This document shows positions 5,886-26,860 of a stretch of DNA of 64,000 nt, one piece after another; within the stretch, counting starts at the first letter, position 1; every line of letters begins with the position of its first letter. A program made the translations under genes and the position numbers. Source of the stretch: Lama guanicoe (Eukaryota); contig MU053933.1 in the NCBI GenBank assembly GCA_013239625.1, positions 2,257,026-2,321,025 of the forward strand. The letters are read 5' to 3'. The notes under the pieces were generated by a model, which saw only the letters and a program-made list of their open reading frames with translations, made no database searches and was not told the DNA's origin.

Positions 5886-6819
5886 NNNNNNNNNNNNNNN
5901 NNNNNNNNNNNNNNNNNNNNNNNNNNNNNNNNNNNNNNNNNNNNNNNNNNNNNNNNNNNNNNNNNNNNNNNNNNNNNNNNNNNNNNNNNNNNNNNNNNNN
6001 NNNNNNNNNNNNNNNNNNNNNNNNNNNNNNNNNNNNNNNNNNNNNNNNNNNNNNNNNNNNNNNNNNNNNNNNNNNNNNNNNNNNNNNNNNNNNNNNNNNN
6101 NNNNNNNNNNNNNNNNNNNNNNNNNNNNNNNNNNNNNNNNNNNNNNNNNNNNNNNNNNNNNNNNNNNNNNNNNNNNNNNNNNNNNNNNNNNNNNNNNNNN
6201 NNNNNNNNNNNNNNNNNNNNNNNNNNNNNNNNNNNNNNNNNNNNNNNNNNNNNNNNNNNNNNNNNNNNNNNNNNNNNNNNNNNNNNNNNNNNNNNNNNNN
6301 NNNNNNNNNNNNNNNNNNNNNNNNNNNNNNNNNNNNNNNNNNNNNNNNNNNNNNNNNNNNNNNNNNNNNNNNNNNNNNNNNNNNNNNNNNNNNNNNNNNN
6401 NNNNNNNNNNNNNNNNNNNNNNNNNNNNNNNNNNNNNNNNNNNNNNNNNNNNNNNNNNNNNNNNNNNNNNNNNNNNNNNNNNNNNNNNNNNNNNNNNNNN
6501 NNNNNNNNNNNNNNNNNNNNNNNNNNNNNNNNNNNNNNNNNNNNNNNNNNNNNNNNNNNNNNNNNNNNNNNNNNNNNNNNNNNNNNNNNNNNNNNNNNNN
6601 NNNNNNNNNNNNNNNNNNNNNNNNNNNNNNNNNNNNNNNNNNNNNNNNNNNNNNNNNNNNNNNNNNNNNNNNNNNNNNNNNNNNNNNNNNNNNNNNNNNN
6701 NNNNNNNNNNNNNNNNNNNNNNNNNNNNNNNNNNNNNNNNNNNNNNNNNNNNNNNNNNNNNNNNNNNNNNNNNNNNNNNNNNNNNNNNNNNNNNNNNNNN
6801 NNNNNNNNNNNNNNNNNNN
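5886..6819. other. Assembly gap (934 N)
   Basis: Run of N. Confidence 1.
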
Positions 6820-16269: not shown

Positions 16270-16529
16270 TCAGCAGCAGGAAGGGACACCACAGGGGATG
16301 GGTCTGCAGACCAGGGCGGGGCAGGAGGGCTGGCAGCACCCGGAGGACTGGCGGGAGGGGGCCACACACACAGGGGCTTGCAGCTCACGGGCAGCCGTGT
16401 GGTCAGCTTGCAGCTCACAGGCACGCACACGACAGGCCTGCGGCTCAGTGACACACAGCAAGTCTGCCGGCAGGGGCCGGGCTCACGGCAGGCCGGCCGG
16501 CAGCCCGCAGAGCAGCTAGTGTGGCACCT
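16270..16529 (-). pseudogene. KRTAP12: KRTAP12-family pseudogene
   Basis: Minus strand reads AGG-TGC-CAC-ACT-AGC-TGC where paralogs have ATG-TGC-CAC-ACC-AGC-TGC (MCHTSC). It ends VCVAPSRQSSGCCQPSCPALVCRPIPCGVPSCC*. The 260-nt span is not a multiple of 3, and the TATA box is altered to CATAAA (16631-16636). Confidence 0.85.
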
Positions 16530-18180: not shown

Positions 18181-18511
18181 TCGGCGTTTTCCTCTGCAAA
18201 AAACCCTCAAAGTACAGTATTGCCTCAAAGTCTTCGTTGACGTCATGAGACCTAAAGGAGTAAGAGGTTACAGCACCGAGTCCATGCAAGGGTGCGCTGG
18301 GCACAGTGATGGCCGGAGGAACAACACACACCCCACGTAAAGTCAGACCAGAACATCCTGCTTACGGGCGGAGGAATTGGCCTCAAAGCCAAACTAATTT
18401 GTGGTGAAGAACAATACAGGAAAGTGCGTCCCATGATAATAAGGCGTTGGCAACAACCTCGAGGAAGTCAGCAGGTGAGCTTCTGTGCTGCTGGGACGCC
18501 CACGGCCCGGG

Positions 18512-18517
18512 TATAAA
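18512..18517 (+). promoter_or_regulatory. TATA box of KRTAP12 (+)
   Basis: GGGTATAAAGGC, 75 bp upstream of ATG 18587. Confidence 0.8.
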
Positions 18518-18586
18518 GGCAGCCCGGGCAGGGAGGCTGCAGACATCACCGCCCTCCTCCCGACGCCAGCCCAGCCCTAAGCCACC

Positions 18587-18934
18587 ATGTGCCACACCAG
18601 CTGCTCCTCCGGCTGCCAGGCTGCCTGCTACGTGCCCAGCTCCGGCCAGGCGTCCTGCTGCACGTCCAGGCCCTGCCAGGCGTCCTGCTATGTGCCCCTG
18701 ACCTGTAAGCCAGCTGTGTGCGTGCCCGTGAGCTGCAGGCCCGTGTGCCTGCCCGTGAGCTGCAGGCCCACCGTGGGTGTGGCCCCCTCCTGCCAGTCCT
18801 TTGTGCGTGTGCCCGTGAGCTACAAACAGGTCGTGTACGTGGCCCCCTCCTGCCAGTCCTCCGGGTGCCTCCAGCCCTCCTGCCCTACCCTGGTCTACAG
18901 ACCCTCCTCCTGTAGCACTCCCTCGTGCTTTTGA
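18587..18934 (+). CDS. KRTAP12: Keratin-associated protein, KRTAP12 family (115 aa)
   Basis: MCHTSCSSGCQ.. start, VCVPVSCRP repeats, APSCQSSGC.QPSCPTLVYRP..STPSC end; GCCACCATG, TATA box, AATAAA at 19188-19193. Confidence 0.92.
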   Translation: MCHTSCSSGCQAACYVPSSGQASCCTSRPCQASCYVPLTCKPAVCVPVSCRPVCLPVSCRPTVGVAPSCQSFVRVPVSYKQVVYVAPSCQSSGCLQPSCPTLVYRPSSCSTPSCF

Positions 18935-19257: not shown

Positions 19258-20773
19258 GTTATTTTTCCCCCACTAGAGAGCAGTTTATCATCTTTAGACT
19301 CAAGGAATTAAAGGCGTGGGTGCAGACTATGCCAGGCCCAGGGCGTTGCGGCTCCTGGGGGCAGGCCCAGCTGCAGCAACGTGCAGGGAAATGGCGGGGC
19401 AGCAGTCAGCAGGTTTGGTCTTCAACGTGGGGGGAAGGAGCGATGATTTTGGGGGCTGGGGAGCAGCAGGAAGAAGAAAGTGGTCTGAGGAGGGGGTGGG
19501 GCCCAGAGGGGCGGAGTTGAAAGGGAAGAGGAAGGAGGCCCCTCCCCACGCACGGTGCTGAGGAGAAGGCACTGGGCTCAGTCTCCTCCTGCCCCGCCCC
19601 CACCCACAGAAGACGGGGGTGGGGGTGGGGGGGTCCTTGTCTCCTCCTCCTTTCAGGGGCCCAGAGGCTGTTTCCGGCTGAGCCTTTAAAAGATTCTGTC
19701 AAACTCATACGTGCTGATCATGGTGGCGCAGGAGGGAGCAGCCTTGAGGGTCCTCAGGAGGAAGCCTGTGAAGAGTCCCCTGGTGCCGGCTCGGCCTGGG
19801 TCCCCTGCAGCAGCAGCCAGGTGGAGTCGGCGTGCGGGGGCATCGCTCTCACTGCCTCCACGGCTCCCCGCGTGACCTGGCCTTGAGTCTTCACCACATC
19901 GAAGGGTAGAGTCGGGGTGGCCACCACCGTCCCCGAGATGCCGCCAGCCACAAAGCTGATGCCCACGGAGGTCTGGTCCTTTGGCCTGAGCCCGCTCAGC
20001 CAGCCCTTCACCAGCTCGTGACTGAACCAGTACAGGGCTGAGAAGGGCACATCCCGAAGGGCAGTGGGACCCCAGTGAGCCACAGCGAGCGCCAGCCGCC
20101 CTGAGCCACAGCAGCTCGGACACAGGTGCCCAGCTCCCGGTACACCAGCTGCCGAGCCTGCAGCTTTGTCCGCACCAGCTCCAGGGGGCTGGCCACAGTC
20201 ACCGTGCCCAGGCGGGCCAGTGCACCGGCCACCATCGGTGCACAGAGGTCTGAGGTCAGGGCTCGACCACACAGGAAGGCCATGAGCTGGCCATAGGCGG
20301 TGGAGCAGACGGTGGCCGCTGGCACAGTCACACCAGGGTGGCTGGGCGGCCACTCCACAGGGTCCTGGTGCCCTCGTGTCCCACAGTCTTCACAGAGGCA
20401 CCCGTGGTGCCAGCGAAGCAAGTGGGGTCCTGACACCCGGCGGCACAGCGGGCACCCCTCGGGCCCGGGACGGCGCGGAGCACAGGAGGCGCTTCCCCGC
20501 GGGCTGAGGGGAGCAGGGCAGTTTGGTGCCGGAGAGGCTGCAGAGTCCCGGGGTGGGGGGCAGTAGCTCGCGGGCCCCCGAGGGGCCATGAGGAGGGAGG
20601 GCACCACAGCCCCAGCGCCCGAGGCCGCCATCTGTTGGAGGGGGCTGATGGCCCCGGCCCTGGTCACCGCCTTGCGGCCTGGGGTCTGGCTCCAGGCCGG
20701 CACCCGCGCGGCGGGTGATCGGGGCCGGGCGGGCCCGTGGCGGCTCCGCGGCCAGCGTGGGGTCCGCGCCAGC
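19258..20773 (-). pseudogene. SLC25A39: Processed pseudogene of mitochondrial carrier SLC25A39
   Basis: Intronless, frameshifted pieces: ISPLQQMAASGAGAVV, FLCGRALTSDLCAPMVAGALARLGTVTV.SPLEL.RTKLQA, WGPTALRDVPFSALYWF..ELVK..RPKDQTSVG.SFVAGGISG, LPFDVVKTQ, KAAPSCA.MISTYEF. Premature TAA at about 19686; 5' and 3' UTRs present; 15-bp TSD TTGAAGTTTTCTTCT at 19243-19257 and 20774-20788. Confidence 0.92.
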
Positions 20774-20788
20774 TTGAAGTTTTCTTCT

Positions 20789-23520: not shown

Positions 23521-24847
23521 TCGACCAGCTGGTATTTACAGAATTCTCTTGCAATTCTTACCTCCACCTGTGCGCATGTCTCTAACTGACGTCTGCCGAA
23601 ACAACGGCGCACGTGTGTGCGGCGGGGACGCCCGCAGCACGTGTGTCCCAGTTCCCAGCTCACATACATGTCCGCAAAGCCCAGAAGTGTGGGAACCAGG
23701 ACGTGTGGGGGTCGGGGAGGTCCAGGTGGGTGCAGAGGGGGGCGTGTTCTGCCCTGACTGAGCGAGCCAGGGTGTGAGGGCCCCAGGACCTCCTTGGAAC
23801 ATAGGAAGGGAGTGATGGCATTGCAGACACCAGGAGCCCCGTCCACTCCTTGTGGCATGGCCCCCCGACTGGCCAACCACTTACGCAGAGAATGATGAGT
23901 CAGGATGGGGGAGGATGGGGCGGCCCTGATCCTTCTCCTGGGCGAGTGGGAGGCAGTGTGCACACTGAGACGTGAACAGCTGACTGGGCACGTTTTGTGG
24001 GGCATTTTCACTGTCCTGGTGGAACTTGCTCCCAAGAGTCCAGCATCTTGGACATGGGGACCCTTTGGAATCCACATTGTGCCAGTGTCACCCTCCAGAT
24101 GTCCTCGTCAGCCGCCATCTGGCCTGCAACCCAGCTCATGACCTCTCTCAGACTCAGATGCCTCAACTCTACCAAGGGGAGTAAGAATTGCTTCCTCAGA
24201 GACGTGAAGGGAAGGTTTCTGGAAATCGTGGGTGGAGAAGACCACGCAGGGCCTGGTGCGAGGGGGCTGGCAGGGACACGTGGGGCTGAATTCCGTCATT
24301 CTCAATGGTGACCTGCTGGTCTGCTCTCCCCAGGGGCTGTGGGGCCCTGGGCCCCAGTCATCCTGGTGGGACAGTCCTGTCGTGGGCCAGCTCCGGGTGG
24401 TCCCCACGGGTGGGAGTCTGGGCGCATCACGCCGGTGCCCTCCCCTCCTTCCCAACAGCAGGACCCCACGCCAGCCGGCAGGACGCCCAAACATCCCCAC
24501 AGGAAGAAGCCCCAGGTGGGGCCCCGGGCCGGGGGCTGTCGTGCACAGACACTGGGGCGTGCGAGGGTGGGCGCCCACCCGGGACACTCAGGGACTCGGT
24601 GGACAAGGGCACAGGACCCTGACTCCCTGGGGACCATCTGTCCACACCCTGCAGTAGGACCCAGTGCCCCCGGCCCAGCAGAGCCCAGCCCGGTGTGGGC
24701 TGCGGCCGCTCCCAGCTCAGGGGCTGTGCTTCGTGTGCGGGGTCTCCTTGTGGGACCGGCTTCACGGGGCCCCCAAAACAGGAAGAGGAAAGTGCAACCA
24801 GCGCCAGCAGCACACAGTGGACCTGTTGCCGGGACACAGGGCCCGGG

Positions 24848-24854
24848 TAATAAA
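24848..24854 (+). promoter_or_regulatory. TATA-like box of the divergent KAP-like gene
   Basis: GCCCGGGTAATAAAGGCTGC aligns with the KRTAP12 promoter GCCCGGGTATAAAGGCAGC. Confidence 0.65.
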
Positions 24855-24901
24855 GGCTGCGCGGGGAAGGAGCTGCCAGACCCGCCCAGCCCCACACCAC
24901 C

Positions 24902-25210
24902 ATGGGCTGGACCATCGGCCCCGAGGGCTGCCAGCCGGGCTGCGCCAGTCGCCCGGGCTGCGTCCCCATCTGCTGCCCTCCCCTGTGCTGTGGGGTGGCC
25001 ACCCCCAATGAGGCCACGCTGTGCTGTCCTCTGGGCTCCATGACCACCTCCTGCCACCCGGGCTGCGACCCTCAGTCCCTGTGCAGCCCCGCCTGCAGCC
25101 CTGCCTGCTGCACATCCCTGAGCTGCCAGCCCGAGGCCTGTGAGGCCGCCTCCTGCCCCACCTGCATCTGCCTGCCCTCCTTCCTCTGCGCCATCCTCCC
25201 CTGCTGCTGA
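24902..25210 (+). CDS. Divergent Cys/Pro-rich keratin-associated-protein-like gene (102 aa), family unassigned
   Basis: Intact ORF MGWTIGPEGCQPGCASRPGCVPICCPPLCC..LPCC*, 23 Cys in 102 aa, strong Kozak CACCATGG, KRTAP12-like TATA region, TGC-TGC-TGA end and AATAAA at 25385-25390. Confidence 0.75.
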   Translation: MGWTIGPEGCQPGCASRPGCVPICCPPLCCGVATPNEATLCCPLGSMTTSCHPGCDPQSLCSPACSPACCTSLSCQPEACEAASCPTCICLPSFLCAILPCC

Positions 25211-26714
25211 AGCCGCGTCTCCCTGGTCACGGCAGCCGAGCCGTGCCACGAAGGTCTCCACCCTGCCGCTCCGCCCTTCACGGGAGCGCGCCCCCGGGGC
25301 CCCACACTGGCCTCTGGCTAGTCACCGAAGACCGAGCCCAGCTCCCAGAGGGAGCCTGAGCCAGGAACCCCGCAGAGGCTGGCTAATAAATGGGTCCATC
25401 TAGCATCCCCTCCAAGGAAACCATCACTAGCACACGGCCGGGGACGGCGTCCCGGGAGGAGACTTGAGGGGCAGCGCAGTGAGGTCACAACTCGGTCGGT
25501 GTGCAGATGAACAGATACTAACCAAATAGATTAATGAGAAAGCTGACCAAGTAGTGGGGCTAGGAAAAACTCGGGGTAGAACGAGGGCCCTGGACAGACC
25601 TTGTGGGTCAGTGGACGACTCCTGCTTTTGTTCACAGGGTAGGGGTGTGGCCAGCCCCTACAACGTAAACAGCAGAAAGGCTGAAAGTAAAGGGGAGAAA
25701 AAACACATCCAACCGGAGCCATCCGGTGCAATTACCTCAGCAGGCAAAGTGCACTTTACGGGAGAAACACTGCCCCGATGGAGATGCACTCTGGCCCGTG
25801 GTAACAAAGTCCAGTGCGCCAGAGACGCAGCGTACTCAGCCTCCACGCGCCACAAACGGTAGCCTCAAAATGGCAAAACCTGGTGCATTCCAAGGAGGAA
25901 AGACGACTCCTGCGTCACGGGAGAGACCGTGACACACCTTCCTCAGAGCAAGCTGACCGACAGCGTTAAAGGTCAATTTATTCAGAACCTGAGACTTTTC
26001 CAGTATTTTTCTTCGCTTCAGACAAAGCTTGCTGAAATGAGACTTTGGCTAATTAATATTTAGGGAACATTTTGTCACAAAGAACTTCCAGATTTATGCG
26101 GAAACATCCATTTGTGGCCTAAAACTTGTGCTCGTGGTATGTGCACATTTGAACCTTTACATCCGTTAAAGAAAAGTGTCAGCTCTGTTGCCCCAAAACA
26201 GCTCCCGTCACAAGGCGCTGCTCAGCTGTGACACATCAGAACCTGACTTTACTGTCACCTTAAGCCAGGGGACTGCCTTGCCCGTTTTGCTCTTTTCCAC
26301 AGTATGACTTGTGGAAAGCACTTGTGCTATTTTCCAAAGCTCTCCTATGAAGAGCATCACGGAAAAGCGGTTAAAACCGTTCAACTGACACAACGCTGTA
26401 GACTGACTGCACTTCAGTTGAAAAAACATTCAGTTCAGAAATAGCAGAATCGTGGGCACAAGTTAATGAAATGGAAAGCACATCACCCAACAGAGTGAGG
26501 ACGGTTCTCTGAGAAGACGGACCCTTGGCCTGTGGGATTGGCCGGTGGGACAAACGGAAAGGGGCCCCAAAGACTCCTGGGAAATGAGGAGAAATTACAG
26601 CAGAGCCACAGACATAACAATTTTAAAAAATTATCAGTGACCATTACAACTTTATCCCAACAAATTATCTAAAACACATAAAGCTTACCAAAACAATTTG
26701 TTTTAGAAATCTGA

Positions 26715-26860
26715 GGTGACGAGGGTGCTGCTCAGCGGCAGAGCGCAGGCTTTGCGTGCACAAGGTCCTGGGTCCCATCCCCAGTGCCTCCGCTACAATA
26801 AATTAAGTGAATAAACAGACAAATCTAATAGCCTCTCCCCCAAAAAACAAACGAAAAAAG
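26715..26860 (+). mobile_element. Degenerate Vic-1-type SINE
   Basis: GCTCAGCGGCAGAGCG..GGTCCTGGGTCCCATCCCCAGTGCCTCC..AAATCTAATAGCCTCTCCCC plus A-rich tail. Confidence 0.7.

Follow-up and report, generated by a model that had tools for sequence, protein, structure and literature searches.

Within a 64,000-nucleotide (nt) stretch of the Lama guanicoe genome (assembly GCA_013239625.1, contig MU053933.1, positions 2,257,026 to 2,321,025 of the forward strand; hereafter, the window), we analyzed a small gene that encodes a 102-amino-acid (aa) protein and lies in a cluster of keratin-associated protein (KAP) genes (Table 1). A prediction made from the letters of this DNA alone had described it as an intact KAP-like gene with a KRTAP12-derived promoter, a strong Kozak context, a GGAA-rich upstream element and a Cys- and Pro-rich product ending in two Cys residues. 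The gene-level features on this list were recovered. The 309-nt open reading frame (ORF) terminates in two Cys codons and a stop, specifies 23 Cys and 16 Pro residues, has a G+C fraction at third codon positions (GC3) of 0.90 and is preceded by the Kozak context CACCATGG; a 10-mer within the GGAA-rich element (24786-24795) recurs at 18418-18427, upstream of a KRTAP12 gene. An N-terminal extension of this ORF was excluded, because the TATA-like box upstream of it contains an in-frame stop. From the evidence below, we conclude that this is a real, divergent high-sulfur KAP gene of which at least the promoter and start are descended from KRTAP12, with possible pseudogene counterparts in cow and horse.

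Table 1. Features at the 102-aa gene and at neighbouring KRTAP12 loci, in window positions.
Feature	Position	Strand	Basis or remark
GGAA-rich upstream element	24776-24795	+	read directly from sequence
KRTAP12-type core promoter	24824-24887	+	alignment and shuffle test
End of short 5' leader and Kozak context	24888-24901	+	alignment
ORF of degenerate C-x-P pentapeptide protein	24902-25210	+	102 aa; dromedary ortholog, RNA contigs without indel
Proximal AATAAA	25385-25390	+	174 nt after stop; bridged by contigs in both RNA runs
143-nt GT..AG intron of read-through transcript	25495-25637	+	joint in runs X15 and X16
Downstream exon of read-through transcript, end undefined	25638-26584	+	contigs placed to 26495
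KRTAP12 pseudogene, no ATG, one frameshift	16271-16528	-	paired head-to-head with the gene at 18587
Intact KRTAP12 gene, 115 aa	18587-18934	+	Keratin_B2_2, 29.4 bits
Short KRTAP12 gene, 75 aa	28717-28944	-	Pfam and promoter comparison

The promoter of the 102-aa gene is KRTAP12-type, not KRTAP10-type. When the 200 nt upstream of the gene were compared with three KRTAP12-type upstream regions, local alignment scores were 51, 56 and 37, none of which was reached in 300 shuffles (the shuffle maxima were 27 and 29 for the comparisons that scored 51 and 56), whereas comparisons with three KRTAP10 upstream regions gave scores of 20-24 that were reached by 8, 23 and 99 of 300 shuffles. Over 61 nt, the core promoter shares 79-80% identity with the promoters located at 18486-18544 and 29045-28987, and the KRTAP12 leader plus start is 73% identical to the 102-aa gene over 63-67 nt, with a 5' leader in the latter that is ~26 nt shorter than in KRTAP12 genes. 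The proposed alignment of the TATA region to a KRTAP12 promoter therefore stands beyond chance, but the box itself (24848-24855, TAATAAAG) is not the same, as both intact KRTAP12 genes have TATAAAG, which is one A fewer. The 250 nt 3' of the stop did not align to any of the six neighbouring genes (scores reached by 35-279 of 300 shuffles).

The 22.5% Cys content of the encoded protein places it inside the limit of the high-sulfur KAP class, which the available part of PMC3269608 defines by a Cys content of at most 30 mol%. As is characteristic of the KAP class, its small ORF is contained in one exon and lies among the KRTAP12 genes of a KRTAP cluster. Using a criterion for five-residue Cys/Pro repeats that was derived from the neighbouring KAP sequences in the window, we found 11 C-x-P motifs (0 of 20,000 shuffles), 11 of the 23 Cys residues in a single position class modulo 5 (p = 0.003) and nine Cys pairs at a lag of 5 (p = 0.018). 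The 102-aa protein is a worn five-residue repeat, contrary to its earlier description as non-repetitive. Its acidic character was borne out: the protein contains five acidic residues and one basic residue and has an isoelectric point of 4.2, versus 7.7-8.9 in 13 KRTAP12 proteins, and its Val content is 2%, versus 10-16% in KRTAP12 proteins. No tryptic peptides are expected from this protein, because it lacks Lys and because its sole Arg, which is replaced by Cys in the allele seen in RNA runs, is followed by Pro.

A hydrophobic C-terminus had been noted, and the best 19-residue stretch does have a hydropathy of 1.73; this value is not unique, being exceeded by one of 13 KRTAP12 proteins (1.84; the next is 1.69). 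A C-terminal membrane anchor is disfavoured, as the hydropathy lies inside the KRTAP12 range. A folded disulfide domain was unsupported by a structure model with a mean predicted local distance difference test score of 42.8, a low-confidence value that is weak evidence because it was obtained from a two-sequence alignment.

The words MCHTSC and VPVSC of KRTAP12 and WQVDDCPESCC and CCRPV of KRTAP10, which had been reported missing, are none of them present in the 102-aa protein. As KAP repeats do not align reliably, we compared the protein with the two families by profiles, shuffles and identity. The KRTAP12 profile comprised 11 of 16 proteins from a search with the KRTAP12 gene at 18587 plus two window genes (P0003, P0009, P0012, P0015 and P0016 were left out as partial or frameshifted), and the KRTAP10 profile comprised three proteins, all from the window, which were the only KRTAP10 proteins available. 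The 102-aa protein scored 7.7 and 8.5 bits on the KRTAP12 and KRTAP10 profiles, respectively, above all 1000 shuffles on each. With leave-one-out KRTAP12 profiles, all 13 members scored 62.7-141.9 bits, KRTAP10 proteins scored 12-35 and the 102-aa protein scored 0.8-10.6. Its global identity to KRTAP12 proteins is 31-42%, below both the 46-81% found among KRTAP12 members and the median KRTAP10-KRTAP12 identity of 46%; its global identity to KRTAP10 proteins is 41-44%. By profile and by identity the protein fits neither family and is therefore not assignable to either.

To this extent the claim of a protein outside KRTAP10 and KRTAP12 holds, but the protein is not unrelated to them, as both of its ends align to proteins of the cluster. 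At the N-terminus, the first 14 residues resemble the starts of 12 KRTAP12 proteins (p = 0.006, or p = 0.0002 with the dromedary protein, in which Cys2 is kept): ~6 of 14 are identical to the MCHTSC...GCQ frame of the 12 aligned members, although the MCHTSC word itself is missing. KRTAP10 starts are not matched (p about 1). The C-terminal 30 residues, in alignments that contain one or two gaps, match both KRTAP10 and KRTAP12 better than any of 1000 shuffles in each case and at nearly equal scores (49.0 and 43.8, respectively); the SCQP..C...SC....C.P motif of KRTAP10 is present there but, since KRTAP12 scores alike, is not diagnostic. P0013 was omitted from both terminal tests on account of its insertion. 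A language-model search placed the protein nearest to KRTAP12-like and Keratin_B2 clusters (0.94-0.95), but its recognition values fell short of the bar, so this support is weak. These results support the proposal of an old KRTAP12-related offshoot that is a high-sulfur KAP by composition.

The gene had been suspected to be unannotated; however, an automatic dromedary model, XP_031306974.1, encodes a protein of 102 aa that is 97% identical to the window protein, differs from it at three residues (positions 2, 16 and 89), carries Cys at position 2, as do KRTAP12 proteins, and is its ortholog. The name of this model, 'KRTAP10-8-like', is a best-hit label that is misleading, as the protein has no KRTAP10 head and the gene has a KRTAP12 promoter in the window. 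XP_031306974.1 was the sole protein homolog, and no ortholog outside camelids was found, in libraries that hold predicted proteins only: one match was obtained among eight candidates of 56-179 aa and none among 27 longer ones, and a representative search of 1.84 billion entries gave one match, where relatives more than 50% identical can hide behind a representative. When the neighbouring KRTAP12 protein (18587 gene) was used as a control query, 13 of 50 candidates were relatives at E ≤ 1e-3, and most of these carried a KRTAP12 name. Many KRTAP genes are unannotated (80 were absent from one pig build, according to the available part of PMC12831279), so that the lack of non-camelid homologs in such libraries is weak evidence. 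A scan of metagenomes for host DNA gave 532 pattern matches, none confirmed and nothing mammalian, and a second metagenome scan with a promoter pattern gave seven loci, none similar to the window. We found no paper describing the 102-aa gene in a literature search whose coverage mostly excluded subscription journals, and the accession of the dromedary model did not occur in two papers checked for it. Motif searches of supplementary files of PMC4180150 and PMC12831279, whose examined content was coordinates and names, likewise gave no peptide of the 102-aa protein.

We next consider the RNA record. Among 24 sequencing runs listed, none of which was identifiable as skin or follicle, five that are recorded as RNA contain part of the gene stretch, and three of these five are labelled 'reproductive system metagenome'. 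Ten DNA runs, under four organism labels, contain all 71 sampled words and were flagged as possible sources of this DNA. The RNA contigs examined came from two runs of different studies, X15 ('reproductive system metagenome') and X16 (coded organism label); two DNA runs, X4 and X7, gave no coverage of the gene. Camel-type contigs of both cover the ORF without an indel, X15 with a single contig (24567-25495) and X16 from 24906 to 25493, resuming at 25637. At positions 16 and 89 both agree with the dromedary protein, as does X15 at position 2 (X16 begins after it). Contig depth in X15 was 79.8 over the gene and 4.0-4.6 upstream, values that serve neither to rank expression nor to locate a start site.

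The GT..AG intron, which begins 284 nt after the stop, is skipped in both runs, so the single-exon gene unit that had been described does not hold for this RNA; X15 also has an unspliced contig through the intron. Because the skipped intron is GT..AG, transcription of the forward strand, on which the ORF lies, is indicated. Under the exon-junction rule, an intron this far after a stop predicts nonsense-mediated decay, and the spliced read-through RNA is therefore a predicted decay target. Beyond the intron, loose contig ends of 76 and 89 nt start with letters that match 26496-26525 and reach about 26570-26584. At 26720-26815 lies a short repeat-like element with an A-rich tail, whose two AATAAA signals (26797 and 26810) offer possible ends for the read-through transcript. 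At donor position +3 (25497) the window allele has C and the camel-type allele A, making the window donor weaker; Old World camels may use the 3' intron, and the window species may use it less or never.

The AATAAA that had been noted downstream of the ORF is present, but the contigs of both studies run across it. Downstream of this site the T fraction is 0.12, versus 0.24-0.42 in four neighbouring KAP genes, which makes for a poor U-rich element. KAP genes are intron-less as a rule (PMC8657448, in its available part). The 102-aa gene departs from this rule in the RNA seen, and there may be a follicle form that ends at the proximal AATAAA.

The window and camel-type alleles, which are ~3.8% apart, a distance that makes a South American camelid the likely source of the window, differ at 10 positions of the ORF (6 synonymous, 4 nonsynonymous) and by no indel. 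The ratio of nonsynonymous to synonymous rates (dN/dS) is 0.22-0.31 (p = 0.018, 0.044, 0.060 and 0.075 under four site models). No Cys is lost in the camel-type allele, and Cys at positions 2 and 17 is found in that allele only. The expectation of a conserved open frame with dN/dS below 1 was thus upheld in that the frame is open in Old World camels, but the significance is borderline. In simulations, a neutral frame survived in 27 of 1500 cases at 15% divergence and in 2 of 1500 at 23%. The paralogs of the 102-aa gene are much more distant than this (the promoter is about 80% identical and the 3' region unalignable), and because neutral survival is rare at such divergence, selection has probably acted on the gene through most of its history; the case for present-day selection rests on the borderline dN/dS. 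The GC3 of the ORF is comparable to that of intact neighbours (0.82-0.92).

In the window, two KRTAP10 genes (+, 5011 and 11216), the KRTAP12 pseudogene (-, 16528) and a KRTAP12 gene (+, 18587) precede the 102-aa gene (+, 24902), which is followed by a second intact KRTAP12 gene (-, 28944), a KRTAP10 gene (+, 34885) and a short exon (42909-42825, -) that has a GT donor and is probably TSPEAR exon 1. The arrangement agrees with KRTAP cluster 3 in the available part of PMC8657448. The pseudogene has CATAAA in place of TATAAA and occupies the position of human KRTAP12-4, and the two intact KRTAP12 genes have near-identical promoters and low Cys contents (17% and 13%). An assembly gap of 934 N (5886-6819) could hide more KAP sequence, and a long degenerate CA/TA dinucleotide repeat (850-1480) gives rise to spurious Cys/Val-rich ORFs.

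Published tables, compared by position only, show an entry in the same slot in two of six species that have a comparable KRTAP12 pair; the elephant-type table is not comparable. In the available part of PMC4180150, the order in human direction is KRTAP10(+), KRTAP12(-), KRTAP12(+), 'KRTAP10p'(+) of 297 nt and KRTAP12(-) in cow, and KRTAP12(-), KRTAP12(+), 'KRTAP12p'(+) of 90 nt and KRTAP12(-) in horse. The cow 'KRTAP10p' and horse 'KRTAP12p' share the slot and relative strand of the 102-aa gene, and the cow entry is also close to it in length (297 versus 309 nt). Their coordinates are chr1:146,965,820-146,966,116 of Btau4.0 (cow) and chr26:39,805,747-39,805,836 of EquCab2 (horse). That the slot is called KRTAP10 in cow and KRTAP12 in horse fits the mixed affinity of the 102-aa protein. 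The distance past the forward KRTAP12 gene is 3.1 kb in cow, 4.4 kb in horse and 6.0 kb in the window, where the gap includes a ~1.4-kb retrocopy and a ~2-kb AT-rich stretch. This retrocopy (19400-20780, -) is a frameshifted, intron-less mitochondrial carrier sequence inside the KAP cluster (Pfam Mito_carr, E = 4e-8) that resembles SLC25A39. For alpaca (2.5x assembly), the available part of PMC4180150 lists a single KRTAP12 (213 nt) and a single KRTAP10p (507 nt). Human KRTAP12p1, at 311 nt the fifth KRTAP12-type sequence of this cluster and on the forward strand, was rejected as a positional ortholog because it occupies a different slot, after KRTAP12-1, with no human entry between KRTAP12-3 and KRTAP12-2 in the available part of PMC2528016; KRTAP12-5P is listed for human in that of PMC12779367.

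Our favoured explanation, to which we assign a probability of roughly 60%, is that the locus is an intact gene, likely an old KRTAP12 duplicate, that likely still encodes a KAP of the hair cuticle. Disulfide cross-linking is the role of KAPs, and the product would be an unfolded matrix protein whose 23 Cys residues, many of them five apart with Pro two residues on, would link keratins and other KAPs as the fibre hardens. After an origin by duplication of a KRTAP12 gene, the Val-rich repeats would have been replaced and the charge would have turned from basic to acidic, a change that is itself evident in the sequence. The KRTAP12-type promoter and the cluster suggest that the gene would be expressed in cuticle cells, as are KRTAP10 and KRTAP12 (cuticle expression of KRTAP10 and of all four human KRTAP12 genes is listed in the available part of PMC10029157). 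Outside the follicle, transcripts would bypass the weak proximal AATAAA and splice the 3' intron, as they do in the camel-type RNA contigs; this form, a presumptive target of nonsense-mediated decay, is probably a by-product. Follicle expression and a protein product are predictions of this account.

Several observations weigh against this explanation. Neither follicle RNA nor a peptide of the 102-aa gene was seen, and the only RNA seen consists of read-through, spliced contigs from libraries without a skin label. The TATA box departs from the KRTAP12 form, the poly(A) signal sits in a weak context, and the dN/dS below 1 in camelids is of borderline significance. The protein matched no Pfam family at E ≤ 1, although Keratin_B2_2 was matched by four of four neighbours, three above the cut-off. 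Cys2 is gone in the window allele; a neutral frame survives 3.8% divergence in 573 of 1500 simulations (38%); and the neighbouring KRTAP12 pseudogene still has a GC3 of 0.71-0.77. The cow and horse entries are catalogued as pseudogenes, a term defined by frameshifts or stops in the available part of PMC4180150, and no entry appears in the same slot in the pig, panda, dog and human tables (PMC4180150 and PMC2528016, available parts) or after the first of the two horse KRTAP12 pairs, so that the syntenic position proposed for the gene is matched in cow and horse and not in these others.

A rival reading is that a formerly functional KAP gene is now in decay in camelids too: its frame would be open through recent chance, and the transcript would be a spliced read-through RNA, non-coding and antisense to the host gene. 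In favour of this reading are the changed TATA box, the weak poly(A) surroundings, the intron that begins 284 nt past the stop, the missing Cys2 of the window allele, the 38% neutral survival over the camel distance and the pseudogene status of the cow and horse entries. We regard such decay as unlikely, as it sits poorly with the synonymous excess (6 of 10 changes; p = 0.02-0.08), with a GC3 level with that of intact neighbours and with the camel differences, which include no change from Cys to non-Cys and place Cys at positions 2 and 17 of the camel-type allele.

A different origin is suggested by the DNA of the coding 3' half, which scores 61-74 against KRTAP10 genes (0 of 300 codon shuffles each) and 34-43 against KRTAP12 genes (34, 5 and 1 of 300). 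Because this half is closer to KRTAP10, the gene could be a chimera, still a KAP, in which unequal crossing-over or gene conversion fused the promoter and initial codons of a KRTAP12 gene with a 3' half of KRTAP10 origin, followed by divergence; the higher global identity to KRTAP10 and the KRTAP10 name of the dromedary model point the same way. The C-termini of KRTAP10 and KRTAP12 are, however, mutually alike and score about equally with the 102-aa protein, long repeat-rich KRTAP10 genes raise the scores of any such sequence, and the camelid KRTAP12 genes in the DNA test have lost Cys, all of which make a chimera quite improbable in our assessment. Least probable is co-option of a KAP-derived gene outside hair, for example in reproductive tissue, with the spliced long transcript as a working mRNA, for although the 'reproductive system metagenome' labels, the X15 depth, the splicing in two studies and the acidic, Val-poor composition unlike KRTAP12 are in keeping with it, expression is not rankable from contig depth, the search is biased towards the runs on offer, tissue annotation is coarse or coded, the intron predicts decay and its donor is weakened in the window allele.

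The TSPEAR-intron cluster is given two families only, KRTAP10 and KRTAP12, in the available parts of PMC8657448, PMC4180150 and PMC2528016. A gene that is more distant from KRTAP12 than KRTAP10 is, and yet has a KRTAP12 promoter, would be a candidate for a third subfamily and a camelid fibre gene under the wrong name. Its product, yielding no tryptic peptides, would escape standard fibre proteomics, and a KAP transcript with a spliced 3' intron is an exception to the intron-less rule. The gene is already known as an automatic dromedary prediction, while the spliced read-through transcript is unexpected; as a further small KAP in a family whose genes are known to be gained and lost by lineage, it is an incremental advance. 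More speculative, and in our view doubtful, is a fuller account in which a third TSPEAR-intron KAP lineage, pre-dating the camel-horse split, would be dead in cattle and horse and alive in camelids, where it would give the fibre cuticle an acidic, trypsin-invisible cross-linker silenced by the 3' intron outside the follicle.

In comparison with the known families of this cluster, the 102-aa gene resembles KRTAP10 in its C-terminal motif, five-residue Cys spacing, acidic residues and, in the 3' part of the coding region, 108 nt of DNA at 73% identity, but it lacks the KRTAP10 N-terminal domain, promoter and CCRPV runs and, at 102 versus 176-216 aa, is about half as long. It differs from KRTAP12 in its acidic protein without VPVSC-type repeats, its unalignable 3' region and its spliced read-through RNA, while sharing with KRTAP12 the promoter, the leader, part of the N-terminal frame, a C-terminal motif ending in CC, a length of ~100 aa, a Cys content of 22.5% and a position in the cluster.

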